Made by a program: the position numbers and the translations under genes. The notes under the pieces are model-generated. The model was not told where the DNA came from. It saw only the letters and a program-made list of their open reading frames with translations, and did not search any database. Shown piece after piece: positions 4,380 to 53,524 of a stretch of DNA of 64,000 nucleotides. This stretch comes from Octopus vulgaris. Lineage: Eukaryota. The stretch spans positions 23,746,001-23,810,000 of the forward strand of contig OX597816.1 of assembly GCA_951406725.2 (NCBI GenBank). The letters run 5' to 3'. Position 1 is the stretch's first letter. Each line of letters starts with the position of its first letter.

Positions 4380-4390
4380 TTATATATATA

Positions 4391-4553
4391 GGCGTAGCAG
4401 TGGCTGTGTGGTTAGTAGCTTGCTTACCAACCACGTGGTTCCGGATTCAGTCCCACTGCGTGGCACCTTGGGCAAGTGTCTTCTACTATAGCCTCGGACC
4501 GACCAAAGCCTTGTGGGTGGATTTGGTAGACGGAGATTGAAAGAAGCCCGTCG

Positions 4554-4639
<86 letters not shown>

Positions 4640-4840
4640 TGTGTCTGTGTTTGTCCCCCCAACATCGCTTGACAACTGATGCTGGTGTGTTTACGTCCAC
4701 GTAACTTAGCAGTTCGGCAAAAGAACTCCGATAGAATAAGTACTTGGCGTACAAGGAATAAGTCCTGGGGTCGATTTGCTCGACTAAAGGCGGTGCACCA
4801 GCATGGCCACAGTCAAATGACTGAAACAAGTAAAAGAGTA
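4391..4840 (+). mobile_element. Full-length family A SINE (tRNA head, CORE-like CACCTTGGGCAAGTG, internal TA/TG microsatellite, AAGTAAAAGAGTA tail)
   Basis: A box TGGCTGTGTGG, B-box-like GGATTCAGTCC; about 20 related copies in the window. Confidence 0.9.
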
Positions 4841-5318
4841 ATAGATGTGTAACTATTCATATGTATGTATATATGTATGTGTGTGTAAAATCAGAGGAGT
4901 AAGGTTTAGGAAGAAAATGTGCTTCAAGCAATCCGTATAAAATAGGAAAAAAACGACTTTCAGGAACAATGATTTATTGGTGTGGAAAGTTGTATATTTT
5001 CCGGTATGGAAGTACGATAAGCAGGAAAAAACCATTTTATAGTTCACGATTGGCAGCCAGGGTTCCTGGGGATGCGAATAAAAAAAATCCAAGAACTAAA
5101 GAAAGGAGTAGATGTTCTTTTACTCGATTCGGTCATTAAACTGCGGCCATGCTGGAGCATCACCTTAAAGCATTTTAGTCAAATGAATCGACGTCAGGAT
5201 TCTTTTATATTTTAAGCCTGGTACTTATTCTATCGGTCTCTTTTTTTGCCGAACCGTTAAACACACCAACAACGGTTGTCAACCGGTGGCGGGGGACTAA
5301 CGCAGAAACATCTATAAG

Positions 5319-5372
<54 letters not shown>

Positions 5373-5469
5373 CACACATATATTTATACATACATATATA
5401 ATACATATATGTATATAGATATATATATATGTATATATGTATATGTAAATAAATATATATGTATATCGT

Positions 5470-5812
5470 GCGTGGCACCTTGAGCAAGTGTTTCTACTAT
5501 AGCCTCGGGCTGACCAAAGCCTTGGGAGTGGATTTGGTAGACGGAAACTGAAAGAAGCCCGTCGTATATATGTATATATATATATATGTATGTGTGTATA
5601 TGTTTGTGTGTCTATGTTTGTCCCCCCAACATCGCTTGACAACCTATGCTGGTGTGTTTACGTCCGTGTAACTTAGCGGTTCAGCAAAAGAGACCGATAG
5701 AATAAGTACTAGGCTTACAAAGATTAAGTCCTGGGGTCGATTTCCTCGACTAAAGGCGGTGCTCCAGCATGGCCACAGTCACATAACTGAAACAAGTAAA
5801 AGAGTAAAAGAG
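5470..5812 (+). mobile_element. Family A SINE lacking its head, back-to-back with an inverted 3' half at ~5117-5310
   Basis: Similarity to 4391-4840. Confidence 0.8.
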
Positions 5813-6355: not shown

Positions 6356-6393
<38 letters not shown>

Positions 6394-6424
6394 TAACATC
6401 GTAGATTTCGTCTTGGTATATGCT

Positions 6425-6494
6425 TGGCTGATGAAGGTAAAATAAAATATGGGTGAGAGACATATCTTGTAAAACCTGAAACCTGCAGGTCCCA
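6425..6494 (+). ncRNA. Type I minimal hammerhead ribozyme
   Basis: TGG-CTGATGA-AGGT...ACCT-GAAA-CCTGCAG-GTC-CCA: intact core, stem I TGG/CCA, stem II AGGT/ACCT, palindromic stem III ACCTGCAGGT, GUC site at 6491. Confidence 0.88.
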
Positions 6495-6854
6495 CATTGT
6501 CCTTTTCCGGGTGTTTCATCTTTCAGATGTTCTCCCTGGAGGTAAAACGTTTTTTTACTCTAGTTTGTTGCACACACGCATTTTGCTAATACATACGCGG
6601 TGAAGCTACACGTTAGCGTCGTATTTTTACGTTCGCTATTTCCAGTAAATATCGGTACTTAGTTGTGCCATTTATTTACTAATTTGTGTATTTTTCCCTC
6701 ACGGGCTACTTTTTACTGGAAGGCGATACTTTGTATTGCATTACTGATATTTTGAAACTTCTTCACCGTTTCTCGTACTGTTAGCGTTCCGCATTTCAGT
6801 CGAGTGTGATAGTATTAATGTGGTAACATCGTAGATTTCGTCTTGGTATATGCT

Positions 6855-6924
6855 TGGCTGATGAAGGTAAAACAAAATATGGGTGAGAGACATATCTTGT
6901 AAAACCTGAAACCTGCAGGTCCCA
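6855..6924 (+). ncRNA. Type I minimal hammerhead ribozyme (second tandem copy)
   Basis: Same motif 430 nt downstream; GUC site at 6921. Confidence 0.88.
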
Positions 6925-7101
6925 CATTGTCCTTTTCGGGTGTTTCATCTTTCAGATGTTCTCCCTGGAGGTAAGACGTTTTTTTAGTTGCACACACGCA
7001 TTTTGCTAATACATACGCGGTGAAGCTACACATTAGCGTCGTATTTTTACGTTCGCTATTTCCAGTAAATATCGGTACTTAGTTGTGCCATTTATTTACT
7101 A

Positions 7102-7134
<33 letters not shown>

Positions 7135-7135
<1 letters not shown>

Positions 7136-7553
7136 GGCGCAGGAGTGGCTGTGTGGTAAGTAGCTTGCTAACCAACCACATGGTTCCGGGTTCAGTCCCA
7201 CTGCGTGGAACCTTGGGCCAGTGTCTTCTGCTATAGCCCCGGGCCGACCAATGCCTTGTGAGTGGATTTGGTAGACGGAAACTGAAAGAAGCCTGTCGTA
7301 TATATGTATATATATATATGTATATGCGTGTGTGTGTTTGTGTGTCTGTGTTTGTCCCCCTAGCATTGTTTGACAACCGATGCTGGTGTGTTTACGTCCC
7401 CGTCACTTAGCGGTTAGGCAAAAGAGACCGATAGAATAAGTACTGGGCTTACAAATAATAAGTCCCGGGGTCGAGTTGCTCGATTAAAGGCGGTGCTCCA
7501 GCATTACCGCAGTCAAATGACTGAAACAAGTAAAAGAGTAAAAGAGTAAAGAG
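7135..7553 (+). mobile_element. Full-length family A SINE
   Basis: Consensus match with (GTAAAAGA)n tail. Confidence 0.9.
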
Positions 7554-8073
7554 TATACGGCAGACTTCTTTCAGTTTCCGTCTACCAAATCCAATCACAA
7601 AGCTTTGGTCGGCCCGAGGCTATATCTATAGACACATGCCTAATATGCCACGCAGTGAGAGTGAACCCGAAACCACGTGGTTAGGAAGCAAGCTTCTTTA
7701 CATGCTACAAATTAATTTACATTGCTCAGGTGCTTTTCAAACCAAGTATTCCTTTCTAAAAACCTCATATTCTACACAGTACGTTACGGATAAAATCAAA
7801 TCGAACACAAAATCCATAATCCATATAGCCATTATTGAACTATTAGCAATGAGATATTACTTTCTGTACATTTATTTAATGACTTAATCATTTTATTGAA
7901 GTGAAGTGTTGTGAAGAAATAAATCTAATGCAATCTACTCGTCTTTCAAGTTAGTTTAGCGTAGAGTTCCAACAGCGACTTCACTTAGTATTCCATTTCA
8001 GATCTGTCTCCGGTTTAAAGAGAGACAAAGTGGAGTAAAGATACAGAAATGATGAGAATGCGTTTATCTACGG

Positions 8074-14164: not shown

Positions 14165-14520
14165 ATAATGGGCTTCTTTCAGTTTCCGCGAACCAAATCT
14201 ACTCGCAAGTCTTATTAGTAGAAGACACTTACCTAAAGTGCCACTTAGTGGGACTGAGCCTGGAACCATTGTTATTGAGAAGTAAGCATCTTACCACACA
14301 GTCACTCCTGCGCCTAATTGTTTAAATATGTTTAATATTTATTTAGATTACAAGTGACCATCCGTGGTTCATAAAAATCAACCATCCGGAAAGGCTTTGG
14401 AGTAAAAGGTTCCGGGAAAGGGATACCGTACCTTTAGTCTGATATTAGTAAGAGTTTACTGCTACTTTTAGCAGGCCTAGTGACCTCGCAGAAGGATGCT
14501 TCCATACTTTGTAGTAATAC

Positions 14521-15121
14521 CTATTTCTTTACTACCCACAAAGGCTTAAACATAGAGGGGACAAACAAGGACAGACAAATGGATTAAATTGATTATATCG
14601 ACCCCAGTGCGTACCTGGTACTTATTTAATCGACCCCGAAATGATGAAAGGCAAAGTCGACCTCGGCGGAATTTGAACTCAGAACGTAGCGGCAGACGAA
14701 ATACCTATTTCTTTATTACCCACAAGGGGCTAAACACAGAGAGGACAAACAAGAACAGACAAACGGATTAAGTCGATTATATCGACCCCAGTGCGTAACT
14801 GGTACTTATTTAATCGACCCCGAATGGATGAAAGGCAAAGTCGGTCTCGGCGGAATTTGAACTCAGAACGTAGCGGCAGACGAAATACCTATTTCTTTAT
14901 TACCCACAAGGGGCTAAACATAGAGGGGACAAACAAGGACAGACAAACGGACGAAGTCGATTACATCGACCCCAGTATGTAACTAGTACTTATTTAATCG
15001 ACCCCGAAAGGATGAAAGGTAAAGTCGACCTCGGCGGAATTTGAACTCAGAGCGAAACGGCAGACGAAATACCGCCAGGCATTTCGCACGACGTGCTAAC
15101 GATTCTGCCAGCTCGCCGCCT
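14521..15121 (-). mobile_element. Family B SINE trimer (one head plus three 184-bp body units)
   Basis: Period 184 (14521/14705/14889); TSD CTTTGTA(G/C)TAATAC; central GTCGACTTTGCCTTTCATCC...GGGGTCGAT recalls the Deu/Nin domain. Confidence 0.85.
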
Positions 15122-17130: not shown

Positions 17131-18089
17131 CTATCCGTTTTCTTTAGGGGACCAAAAACGTAACAGAAATTTAGTCACATGTGGGCATGATCCGAAAAGT
17201 TCTGTCCTTGTATTTAGACATGTGGTAGGGTCTAAGCTGCTTTTCCAGATAAGCCATCTCTCCATGTCGCATAAACCGCACCTTCCGCTGCCGTTAGTAT
17301 AGGGCTTACATCTGGCCAAAATCTTCCATTGTATGTTATAATCGACACCTTTATCTCTTAAAGACCAAATATGATTGGATAATTGTGTCGCTTTTCTTTT
17401 GTTCCAGTGCCTAAAGCTCAAAGTGTGGTTATTGAACCTGGCCTTGAAATTACCCTCTGTCAGGCCCACGTATTTCTTCGTCGAAACGGTGTCTTTAGTG
17501 GTTATAGAGTTTACGGTAGCTTCATATATGATGGTCTTGGACATGCAAGCTCCATTTAGCGGGCACAATTCTTTATTCCTGCATGAACAGCTGTTTTCTT
17601 CTTGTGTTTTTTGTATGTTATGATTGATTATGTTTTTAAAATTGGTAGTTGAACTAAAACTAATTTTTAAATTGTGTCTATTGAAGAGTTTCCTATAAGC
17701 ATGGTTAACTGGAAAATGTCTATCTATCAGTGCTAGGAAATATTTACCTATATTGAAGGCCACCTCGGGTGAGTAAGGGGGCGTAAACCAGATGACCTTC
17801 CTATTTCTATTATTCCTTTTCCTTATTGTTGGGCTGGTGATAGGTGTATATTTTATTTTTTCGCTAAAACCACTATCTTTTAAAGCTTTATTATAAACTG
17901 GGGCAACGCTATTGAAGATGTCCTCATTAGATGAGAGGCTAGAAATCCTCTTACTAATATTTTTAACTAAATTTTTGAATACTATAGGGGGATGGCATGA
18001 ACCTACATTAATATAACTTTGTCTATCATTGGGCTTACTATAAGGCTTATAAATATTCTTATTAAGATCCAAGGAAACGTCTAAGAAAC
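17131..18089 (-). CDS. Penelope-like RT C-terminus/thumb plus GIY-YIG endonuclease (partial, no genuine start)
   Basis: FLDV..Y.KP....Y....S.HP thumb motif; CSCRNKELCPLNGAC (CxCx5Cx5C); IIY...YVGLT...FKARFNNH. The N-terminal ~43 aa of the listed ORF come from the inverted arm. Confidence 0.9.
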
Positions 18090-23957: not shown

Positions 23958-24070
23958 GATGCAGACTTTTTGCATAGAATTAATAAATAATAATTGATGT
24001 AAGTCAATTGTTCTTAATCAGAACTTCTCAAGTTTCTGTTTTCTTTATATACATACAAATATATATATAT

Positions 24071-24678
<608 letters not shown>

Positions 24679-31415: not shown

Positions 31416-32018
31416 GGCGCCGAGCTGGCAGAAACGTTAGCACGCCGGGCGAAATGCTTGGCGGTATTTCGTCTGCCGCTACGTTCTGAGTTCAAATTCC
31501 GCTCTGAAGTCGACTTTGCCTTTCATCCTTTCGGGGTCGATTAAATAAGTACCAGTTACGCACTGGGGTCGATGTAATCGATTTAATCCGTTTGTCTGTC
31601 CTTGTTAGTCCTCTCTGTGTTTAGCCCCTTGTGGGTAGTAAAGAAATAGGTATTTCGTCTGTCTTTACGTTCTGAGTTCAAATTCCGCTCTGAGGTCGAC
31701 TTTGCCTTTCATCCTCTCGGGGTCGATAAATTAAGTACCAGTTACGCACTGGAGTCGATATAATCGACTTAATCCGTTTGTATGTCCTTGTTTGTCACCT
31801 CTGTGTTTAGCCCCTTGTGGGTAGTAAAGAAATAGGTATTTCGTCTGCCGCTACGTTCTGAGTTCAAATTCCGCCGAGGTCGACTTTGGCTTTCGTCCTT
31901 TCTGGGTCGATTAAACAAGTACTAGTTACGCACTGGTGTCGATGTAATCGACTTAATCCCTTTGTCTGTCCTTGTTTGTCCCCTCTATGTTTAGCCCCTT
32001 GTGGGCAATGAAGAAATA
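31416..32018 (+). mobile_element. Family B SINE trimer with TSD
   Basis: Three ~185-bp body units joined at AAAGAAATAG|GTATTTCGTCTG; TSD ACAAACTGCAAG. Confidence 0.88.
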
Positions 32019-51722: not shown

Positions 51723-51840
51723 GTATATGCAATATCATGTTGAATACACCGGTTCTCGTCCGGCCACCGAAGTTAAGCAACTTCATGCCCAGTTAATATT
51801 TCGATGGGTGGCCGCTAGGGAAACCTAAATGTTGTAAGCT
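51723..51840 (+). pseudogene. 5S rRNA pseudogene
   Basis: GTTGAATACACCGGTTCTCGTCCG..CACCGAAGTTAAGCAAC...GATGGGTG.CCGC..GGGAA...TGTTGTAAGCT matches metazoan 5S over ~118 nt with many substitutions and no oligo-T terminator. Confidence 0.85.
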
Positions 51841-52510: not shown

Positions 52511-52600
<90 letters not shown>

Positions 52601-52948
52601 TACGACAGACTTATTTCAGTTTCCGTCCTCCAAATCCACTCACAAGGCTTTGGTCGGCCCGAGGCTATAGTAGAAGACACTTGCCCAAGGTGCCACGCAA
52701 CGGGACTGAACCTGGAACCTTGTGGTTCGTCAGCAAGATTCTTACCACACAGCCACTCCTACGCCTATATAGATATACATATATACGACGGGCTTCTTTC
52801 AGTTTCCGTCTACCAAATCCACTCACAAGGCTTTGGTCGGCCCGAGCTATAGTAGAAGACACTTGCCGAAGGTGTCACGCAGTGGGACTGAACCCGGAAC
52901 CATGTGGTTGGTAAGCAAGCTACTTACCACACAGCCACTCCTACGCCT
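52313..52948 (-). mobile_element. Family A SINE with tandemly duplicated head half
   Basis: 52601-52766 is repeated at 52786-52948. Confidence 0.85.
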
Positions 52949-53524
52949 ATGTGCATCTTTTTAGACATTTGTGTGGACTGGTACCTTCTGTGTTGAGCTT
53001 TAATGGAAATTACTGAAGAAAGCAAGGACTTTATAAAGCAATTTCACTGGAAACTGCCTCATCAATCATATTTTTGTTCATTGATAACATAACATTGTTG
53101 AAAACGCGTTTAAAATATAAATATATCTTAATATTAAATACTTCCCTTTTTAAAAAATCACAACCCCTTTTAAACACACAGCACGCCCGTTGTATCTCTT
53201 GTGACATTTGCCGCTCTTTATAAACTCACAATACACTCTAACGTTAAGAATCACTGACGTAGAGGCTCTCACGATCGCCATTGTATTTTAGTTTATTCTC
53301 GTTTTCGGACTTTGGTCTCGATAAAGAGCTGCTCACGATGGCTATCTCACTGTTAAAGTCATCAGATGCAGCACGTCCATCGCCCAACGTACATCTTCCT
53401 CACTCACGTTCGTTCCCGCCTTAAATATAGATATGTGCATGTGTTTCTTAGAACTATATGTGAGCGTGTCCTACAAATATGCATATTTTCTTGCTGTTTC
53501 CAATGGAATAAAGTAAATTGTTCC

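Follow-up and report, generated by a model that had tools for sequence, protein, structure and literature searches.

Positions 6392-7104 of the window (the whole 64,000-nt stretch of Octopus vulgaris DNA analysed here) probably hold a 5′-truncated insertion of a protein-less 430-nt hammerhead family, likely copied into TA microsatellites by the reverse transcriptase (RT)-endonuclease of a Neptune-type Penelope-like element (PLE), from an RNA that is predicted to cleave itself as a dimer and is likely re-joined to a circle. By its sequence definition the family is an animal non-LTR retrozyme, i.e., a non-autonomous PLE derivative, with cleavage, expression and the circle being predicted. Animal non-LTR retrozymes in general are argued to be such derivatives in the preprint of Li, Clavereau and Pollet (2026; bioRxiv 10.64898/2026.07.22.740005).

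The Window Copy and Its Unit

The window copy is composed of unit 1 (6392-6821, plus strand), which has the full period of 430 nt, and unit 2 (6822-7104, plus strand, 283 nt), which covers unit positions 1-293 and differs from unit 1 by three substitutions, a 1-nt deletion and a 9-nt deletion. It is bordered by (TA)n on both sides (6359-6391 on the left, 7105-7132 on the right) and amounts to 1.66-1.7 units, while its longest stop-to-stop frame has 87 codons and the longest one from a Met has 72, which confirms the initial description of a 430-bp unit present about 1.7 times between TA tracts without a meaningful ORF. The start of unit 1 is the 5′ truncation point of this copy and not a family boundary, and unit 2 ends at the major 3′ end of the family. 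Since a fixed family 3′ end is here combined with an arbitrary 5′ end, the window copy is an ordinary insertion product and not a specially built dimer. The term head-to-tail dimer, used in the earlier note, therefore holds for the two tandem units with their cores but not for a special locus, since tandem two-core loci number 11 among the 153, this one included. SINE-like common repeat copies flank the locus at 4388-4845, 5399-5811, 7133-7545 and 7554-7698.

Several further features were recognized within the unit, all on the plus strand. The RNA predicted between the two cuts (6492-6921) is 430 nt long with 39% GC. The family has two fixed 3′ ends, at unit positions of about 297 and 359, and the "tail" of about 60 nt between them lies at 6689-6750. 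A 10-bp inverted repeat (6640-6721, with 6640-6649 pairing to 6712-6721) brackets the major 3′ end point, is kept in five of six copies tested across subfamilies and is paired in the circular minimum free energy (MFE) fold. From motif counts and by analogy with PLEs (PMC8557442), a putative retained intron (AG/GTAAG ... TTTCAG/) may be placed at 6542-6799, with a conserved donor at 6542 (GTAAAA in unit 1, GTAAGA in most copies) and a conserved acceptor at 6799, and it would span the major 3′ end point; in Penelope and Chlamys-3 an intron is likewise described across the 3′ end point (PMC8557442). No spliced genomic copies of it were found among the family loci examined.

When the window was searched with the unit by blastn, only units 1 and 2 matched. 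A second TA-flanked element of about 500 nt, at 24050-24560, carries an intact type I hammerhead (24227-24277, CUGACGA, cut after GUA), at which the unit finds no match, in agreement with the view that the 430-nt unit is unrelated in sequence to the other hammerhead elements here. The window also contains tandem arrays of 182-186-nt units with two to three copies each (14516-15073, 31463-32018, 52583-52950) and a solitary 5S rRNA-like sequence at 51723-51840 (Rfam RF00001, 58 bits).

Distribution of the Family

The search of the 2.8-Gb genome with the unit gave 1,365 first-look candidates, 40 of which were scored. Exact genome matches number 731 for a 30-mer from the 3′ region and 1,307 for a 17-mer (reversed controls, 0), and the copies are dispersed over most large contigs, in subfamilies ranging from about 98% down to about 76% identity to the window unit. 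The same unit with the head-to-tail joint was also found in contigs from three other organisms (sequencing runs of unspecified kind). In runs that are only presumed to be RNA, contigs extend over parts of the unit with low depth and without joints, which counts neither for nor against an RNA. In run X15 contig depth at 6632-6676 is 20- to 30-fold above that at the hammerhead, with recurring loose ends, and the peak may come from a relative that is more abundant and has just this 3′ motif in common. The 17-mer census for such a relative returned only further subfamilies of the 430-nt unit, which explain the peak only in part. One loose contig end, considered as a junction with a partner element, proved to be the unique flank of one copy.

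Structure and Conservation of the Hammerhead

Type I hammerheads lie at 6420-6497 and 6850-6927. Both contain CUGAUGA (6428 and 6858), a helix II of AGGU/ACCU, GAAA, the palindromic helix III ACCUGCAGGU (6481-6490 and 6911-6920) and GUC. The cuts are predicted after 6491 and 6921, at a distance of 430 nt. The sequence check thus bore out a perfect CUGAUGA/GAAA/GUC core and a 10-nt palindromic stem III in each unit. The label "canonical hammerhead" can be kept for the core but not for the architecture, which is not of the loop-loop type: helix II encloses 43 nt in two stems, and helix I is composed of 3 bp, a 2-nt bulge and 3 bp. At the Rfam gathering thresholds no hammerhead is called in the window copy, and the MFE fold of 6400-6520 differs from the hammerhead (z +0.84).

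Exact core patterns of the window clade have 90+84 genome matches (174 cores at 153 loci, of which 132 are single, 11 tandem and 10 inverted), against none for the reversed control, and so the recurrence of the core is more than chance. In alignment A1, made of 42 of 55 picked copies after leaving out L169, L178, L185, L200 and L213 (truncated or spurious) and eight others, 95.4% of cells are paired in the named structure, compared with 25-42% in slid controls. Double-sided changes number 34, compared with 11.4 for shuffled data, and none of 500 shuffles reached this value; the count is inflated by relatedness, and the base pairs that change on both sides number three, equal to shuffles. A further clade has AUGCAG/CUGCAU instead of AUGUGG/CCACAU in helix I (two pairs swapped) and AGAC/GUCU in helix II (one pair). 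Judged from these sequences, helices I and II covary across subfamilies, and helix III varies in length yet stays palindromic.

Among 194 helix III words, ACCTGCAGGT occurs 160 times, ACCGGT 16 times and ACCTGCGCAGGT five times. The forms ACCGGU, ACCUGCGCAGGU and ACCUGCAGGU are all perfect palindromes, accompanied by a few imperfect 12-mers. They sort by clade in an unrooted tree built without that segment, with rows subsampled to 24 of 163 CCTGCAGG and 16 of 28 CCGG sequences; being unrooted, this tree gives no order of the helix III changes. For the window form the computed energy is −17.7 kcal/mol for the intermolecular duplex and −0.4 kcal/mol for the hairpin, and because of this difference the calculation favours the dimer cleavage model put forward in PMC4209133, with a 3-bp monomer helix being possible.

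Insertion Pattern and Template Switching

The first insertion analysis comprised 165 distinct insertions, 118 direct and 47 with an inverted arm. In 110 of the direct insertions the 3′ end falls within unit positions 287-304, in seven within 357-361; their 5′ ends are scattered. TA follows 111 of the 118 and precedes 72, and 18 of them span two cut sites. In 40 of the 47 inverted insertions (manual count) the two arms have different ends, one near 300 and one near 357-362. Locus spans are mostly below 1.2 kb, with at most about 2.6 head-to-tail units. PLE insertions are described as partial tandems with an inverted 5′ copy and a tail at one end, and their (TA)n bias is connected with the CX2-5CxxC linker that Neptune elements carry (Craig et al., 2021; PMC8557442). 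The family insertions match this published pattern, showing 5′ truncation, partial tandems, inverted 5′ arms, a one-end tail and (TA)n, and mobilisation of the family by a PLE is considered very probable.

The use of RNA templates and a switch onto host mRNA are shown by a chimera at L031:5380-8089 (G000:C4, ~98.494-98.497 Mb), where a family dimer carries an intronless FMR1/FXR-like retrocopy directly at its 5′ end. This retrocopy is about 1.95 kb long, truncated at both 5′ and 3′ ends, retains an open frame and joins the dimer with 3-nt microhomology. The FMR1-like source gene (L305-L310 on C19) has at least six exons, lies on another contig and is 97-100% identical. The 503-aa frame beside L007, examined as a PLE, was rejected, since it is FMR1-like. 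At L032:1989-2320 (minus strand) a 5′ LINE part, recognized by its motifs as the AP-endonuclease start, is joined directly to unit position 371 and is absent downstream; this junction is possibly a second template switch.

5′ Ends at the Cut Site

If the RNA were cleaved, cDNA might end at the cut. Among 95 arms chosen by their 3′ end, three begin at the cut site and about 97% continue past it. As these arms run across the site, and 18 of the 118 direct insertions pass it twice, most templates were uncleaved or re-ligated; the roughly 3% of arms that stop at the cut also fit poor cleavage. In the window clade none of the 118 insertions has its 5′ end at position 101, in a sample chosen mainly by the presence of the hammerhead.

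Searching the genome with a pattern for ACCGGU-clade copies without an intact core 10 nt upstream gave 32 matches, 30 of which were inspected. The break lies at the cut in 11 and at −7 to −9 in six, and the other 13 represent point changes, deletions or another variant. Six of the 11 cut-site breaks are free of TA ambiguity, five being in a subtype whose intact copies have GUC or GUU and one being an inversion. As background, 36 breaks were counted over 10,574 nt at risk, so that about 0.9 would be expected per position, and about 3.7 in four positions, compared with the 11 observed. Six breaks at one position have a probability of about 4e-4, and 11 in four positions one of about 1.4e-3, both values being post hoc (two of the 11 prompted the test), confined to ACCGGT clades and obtained with breaks that are not uniform, as the six at −7 to −9 illustrate. 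The excess is likely a footprint of cleavage in vivo, and it suggests that the reverse transcriptase sometimes runs off a cleaved 5′ end.

Relation to Penelope-Like Elements

About 288 insertions were inspected together with 1.5-3.5 kb of flank, and in none of them is a PLE RT/EN ORF attached; such an ORF would have been visible, since PLE 3′ UTRs in this genome are only about 300-900 nt long. Six insertions have a same-strand PLE fragment within 1.5 kb upstream, separated by a TA-rich tract in five and by a LINE fragment in one. Family copies run 5′ into more of the same unit and never into an ORF, and no RT + GIY-YIG ORF between pLTRs, as in an autonomous PLE, was found in them. The PLE ORFs beside L034/L035, L099, L170, L193 and L302, considered as partners, belong to elements that have unrelated 3′ UTRs and inserted separately, into the same TA tract or one close by.

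The earlier note had left the choice between a non-autonomous retrozyme and a solo-pLTR family, and had proposed that a family with most copies joined to an RT ORF would be an ordinary pLTR. With 0 of about 288 joined, that case does not apply, and the former term is supported, for a family with a dimer-type hammerhead. The solo-pLTR description found no support, as copies continue 5′ into the same unit. Independence, which the note also ascribed to the element, is to be qualified: no ORF is attached, but the insertion pattern is that of PLE reverse transcription.

Candidate drivers are present. The PLE search gave 30,078 first-look candidates, and few families were sampled from this large set. 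Intact Neptune-type PLEs have a 775-aa frame with RT, CX4CX2C and GIY-YIG, and their 3′ ends also run into TA. All 73 scored PLE matches (L067-L096 and 43 further places) are 99-100% identical at the protein level and without stops; this PLE family is very young. A weak PLE RT-like fragment (27% identity, E 1.5e-4) lies in the window at 17725-18018 on the minus strand.

A homologous pLTR partner was not found among the few PLE families sampled, as the alignments of 16 PLE 3′ UTR stretches with the unit do not score above those of shuffled sequences. Yet AACCGGT occurs in eight of nine PLE 3′ UTR stretches examined (two of which are copies of one family; chance about 1% each), ACCGGT is helix III of the diverged clades of the 430-nt family too and also occurs in autonomous PLEs here, and in a relaxed scan six of the nine stretches fold as minimal hammerheads with U3-A8 or A3-U8 cores. 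Because GAAACCGGU(A/C), the 3′ hammerhead half of the diverged clades, is shared with PLE 3′ UTRs, the sequences suggest that the family originates from a PLE pLTR. The U3-A8 core swap is seen in five PLE 3′ UTR stretches (among L167, L302, L256, L170/L099, L193 and L070) and A3-U8 in L193; the L070 3′ UTR, read by eye, has the C4 variant CCGAAGA with the palindrome AGUACU.

Alternative Explanations

The same element and PLE enzyme could operate without a circle, on a linear, mostly uncleaved read-through template of tandems or by re-priming on a linear monomer, with the ribozyme cutting occasionally. The passage of nearly all arms across the cut site agrees with such a template, and so does the low in vitro activity reported for PLE hammerheads, described as weak in PMC4209133 and, for Xenopus dimers, as one cleaved out of nine (bioRxiv 10.64898/2026.07.22.740005); template switching is, moreover, common here, given the FMR1 chimera and the LINE junction in L032. 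Against it, loci are short and 5′ truncated in each round, so tandems would have to be regenerated, and clades that differ by up to about 24% retain both the palindrome and the core. On balance this alternative is unlikely.

Still less probable is an origin of the copies as 3′ remnants, in the form of solo or tandem pLTRs left by an autonomous PLE with few or no copies in the assembly. The PLE-type insertion pattern would be expected of them, and the genome sample is partial (the roughly 288 insertions compare with 1,307 17-mer matches), but copies longer than one hammerhead region enter the preceding unit and not an ORF, and the six nearby PLE fragments are set apart by a TA-rich tract (five) or another repeat (one). 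A DNA-level satellite or local duplication with a decayed, inactive hammerhead would accord with the lack of an Rfam match and with cleavage and RNA being predicted from sequence; it is very hard to reconcile with the dispersal over most large contigs, the fixed 3′ ends, 5′ truncation and inversion, or with the fusion to a spliced mRNA copy, the compensatory changes and the cut-site excess, and has hardly any probability left. The preferred reading remains that of a PLE-copied hammerhead RNA.

Comparison with Known Systems

As in the animal non-LTR retrozymes described by Cervera and de la Peña (2020; PMC7229834) and in bioRxiv 10.64898/2026.07.22.740005, the element is a dispersed multicopy family without an attached RT ORF, with a non-coding tandem unit of a few hundred nucleotides and below 45% GC (the bound being 45-50%), one type I hammerhead per unit, monomers and dimers and a proposed PLE pLTR origin; complete type I hammerheads in at least two consecutive units are found at the tandem two-core loci. 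It differs from those families by lacking long arrays (at most about 2.6 head-to-tail units), by its long two-part helix II without a canonical loop 1-loop 2 contact, and by the inverted arms and the two fixed internal 3′ ends of its strictly (TA)n-targeted insertions; "microsatellite" and "truncat" are absent from PMC7229834. The 4-bp helix II and loop 1-loop 2 contact of the coral family are absent here, and minimal hammerhead types are also admitted in the retrozyme definition given in bioRxiv 10.64898/2026.07.22.740005. RNA expression and circles were demonstrated for the described families, whereas the present one is known from DNA.

With Neptune-type PLEs and pLTR hammerheads (Cervera and de la Peña, 2014, PMC4209133; PMC8557442) the family has in common partial tandems, 5′ truncation, inverted arms, a one-end tail, (TA)n bias, a palindromic helix III, a long helix II and a putative intron across the pLTR end. 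It lacks the RT-GIY-YIG ORF, has a tail of about 60 nt compared with 30-40 in the PLEs described, and, apart from the helix III word, shows no homology to the pLTRs of those PLEs that were sampled in this genome. Non-autonomous Chlamys elements such as MRC1 (PMC8557442) are likewise PLE derivatives with head-to-tail insertions, but they are green algal, are described as mostly without canonical hammerheads and generally resemble an autonomous family at the 3′ end, no such partner being found here. Plant LTR retrozymes, defined by type III hammerheads in LTRs around a unique middle, with PBS/PPT and a 4-bp TSD, are different, as the hammerhead is here of type I and the units are head-to-tail with no middle. 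The literature search found no paper on the 430-nt family, which may be catalogued already in Repbase-type libraries and preprint supplements, as these lay outside the search, and no paper on 5′ ends piling up at hammerhead cut sites.

Proposed Life Cycle and Its Meaning

A two-unit copy would be transcribed, its two palindromic helices III would pair with each other and the RNA would probably be cut; the cut monomer would then, with slightly better than even confidence, be ligated into a circle. A PLE protein would nick (TA)n and prime cDNA at an internal position that is always the same, some 195 nt downstream of the cut; synthesis would run back across the cut site over as many as about 2.6 units, by which tandems would be regenerated, or alternatively stop at the 5′ end of a cut RNA. 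A circle, as proposed in PMC4209133, would explain both the passage of the cut site and the regeneration of tandems. Units diverge by 1.4% within an insertion compared with 1.0% from the nearest other insertion (median 3.3%), a comparison that does not separate a circle from a tandem master.

More tentatively, and with somewhat less than even confidence, the insertions could be read as a record of the whole retrozyme life cycle, in which the PLE primes at a fixed site of the 430-nt circle, rolls through the ligated junction to make tandems, falls off at the scissile bond of a linear template and switches to host mRNA (FMR1). The in vivo action of hammerheads in PLEs and animal retrozymes and the origin of PLE tandems are stated to be open in PMC4209133, PMC8557442 and bioRxiv 10.64898/2026.07.22.740005. 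The element class is already described, and what the family adds is a clean PLE signature, a helix III series and the cut-site footprint. It provides a young, countable test set, with about 1% divergence within insertions and helix III variants of 6, 10 and 12 nt, to which come constant priming positions and, from the same genome, intact PLEs as candidate drivers. If the life-cycle reading is true, cleavage in vivo and PLE rolling-circle insertion would be readable from DNA alone, and helix III would be under selection to stay palindromic for dimer-gated cleavage.
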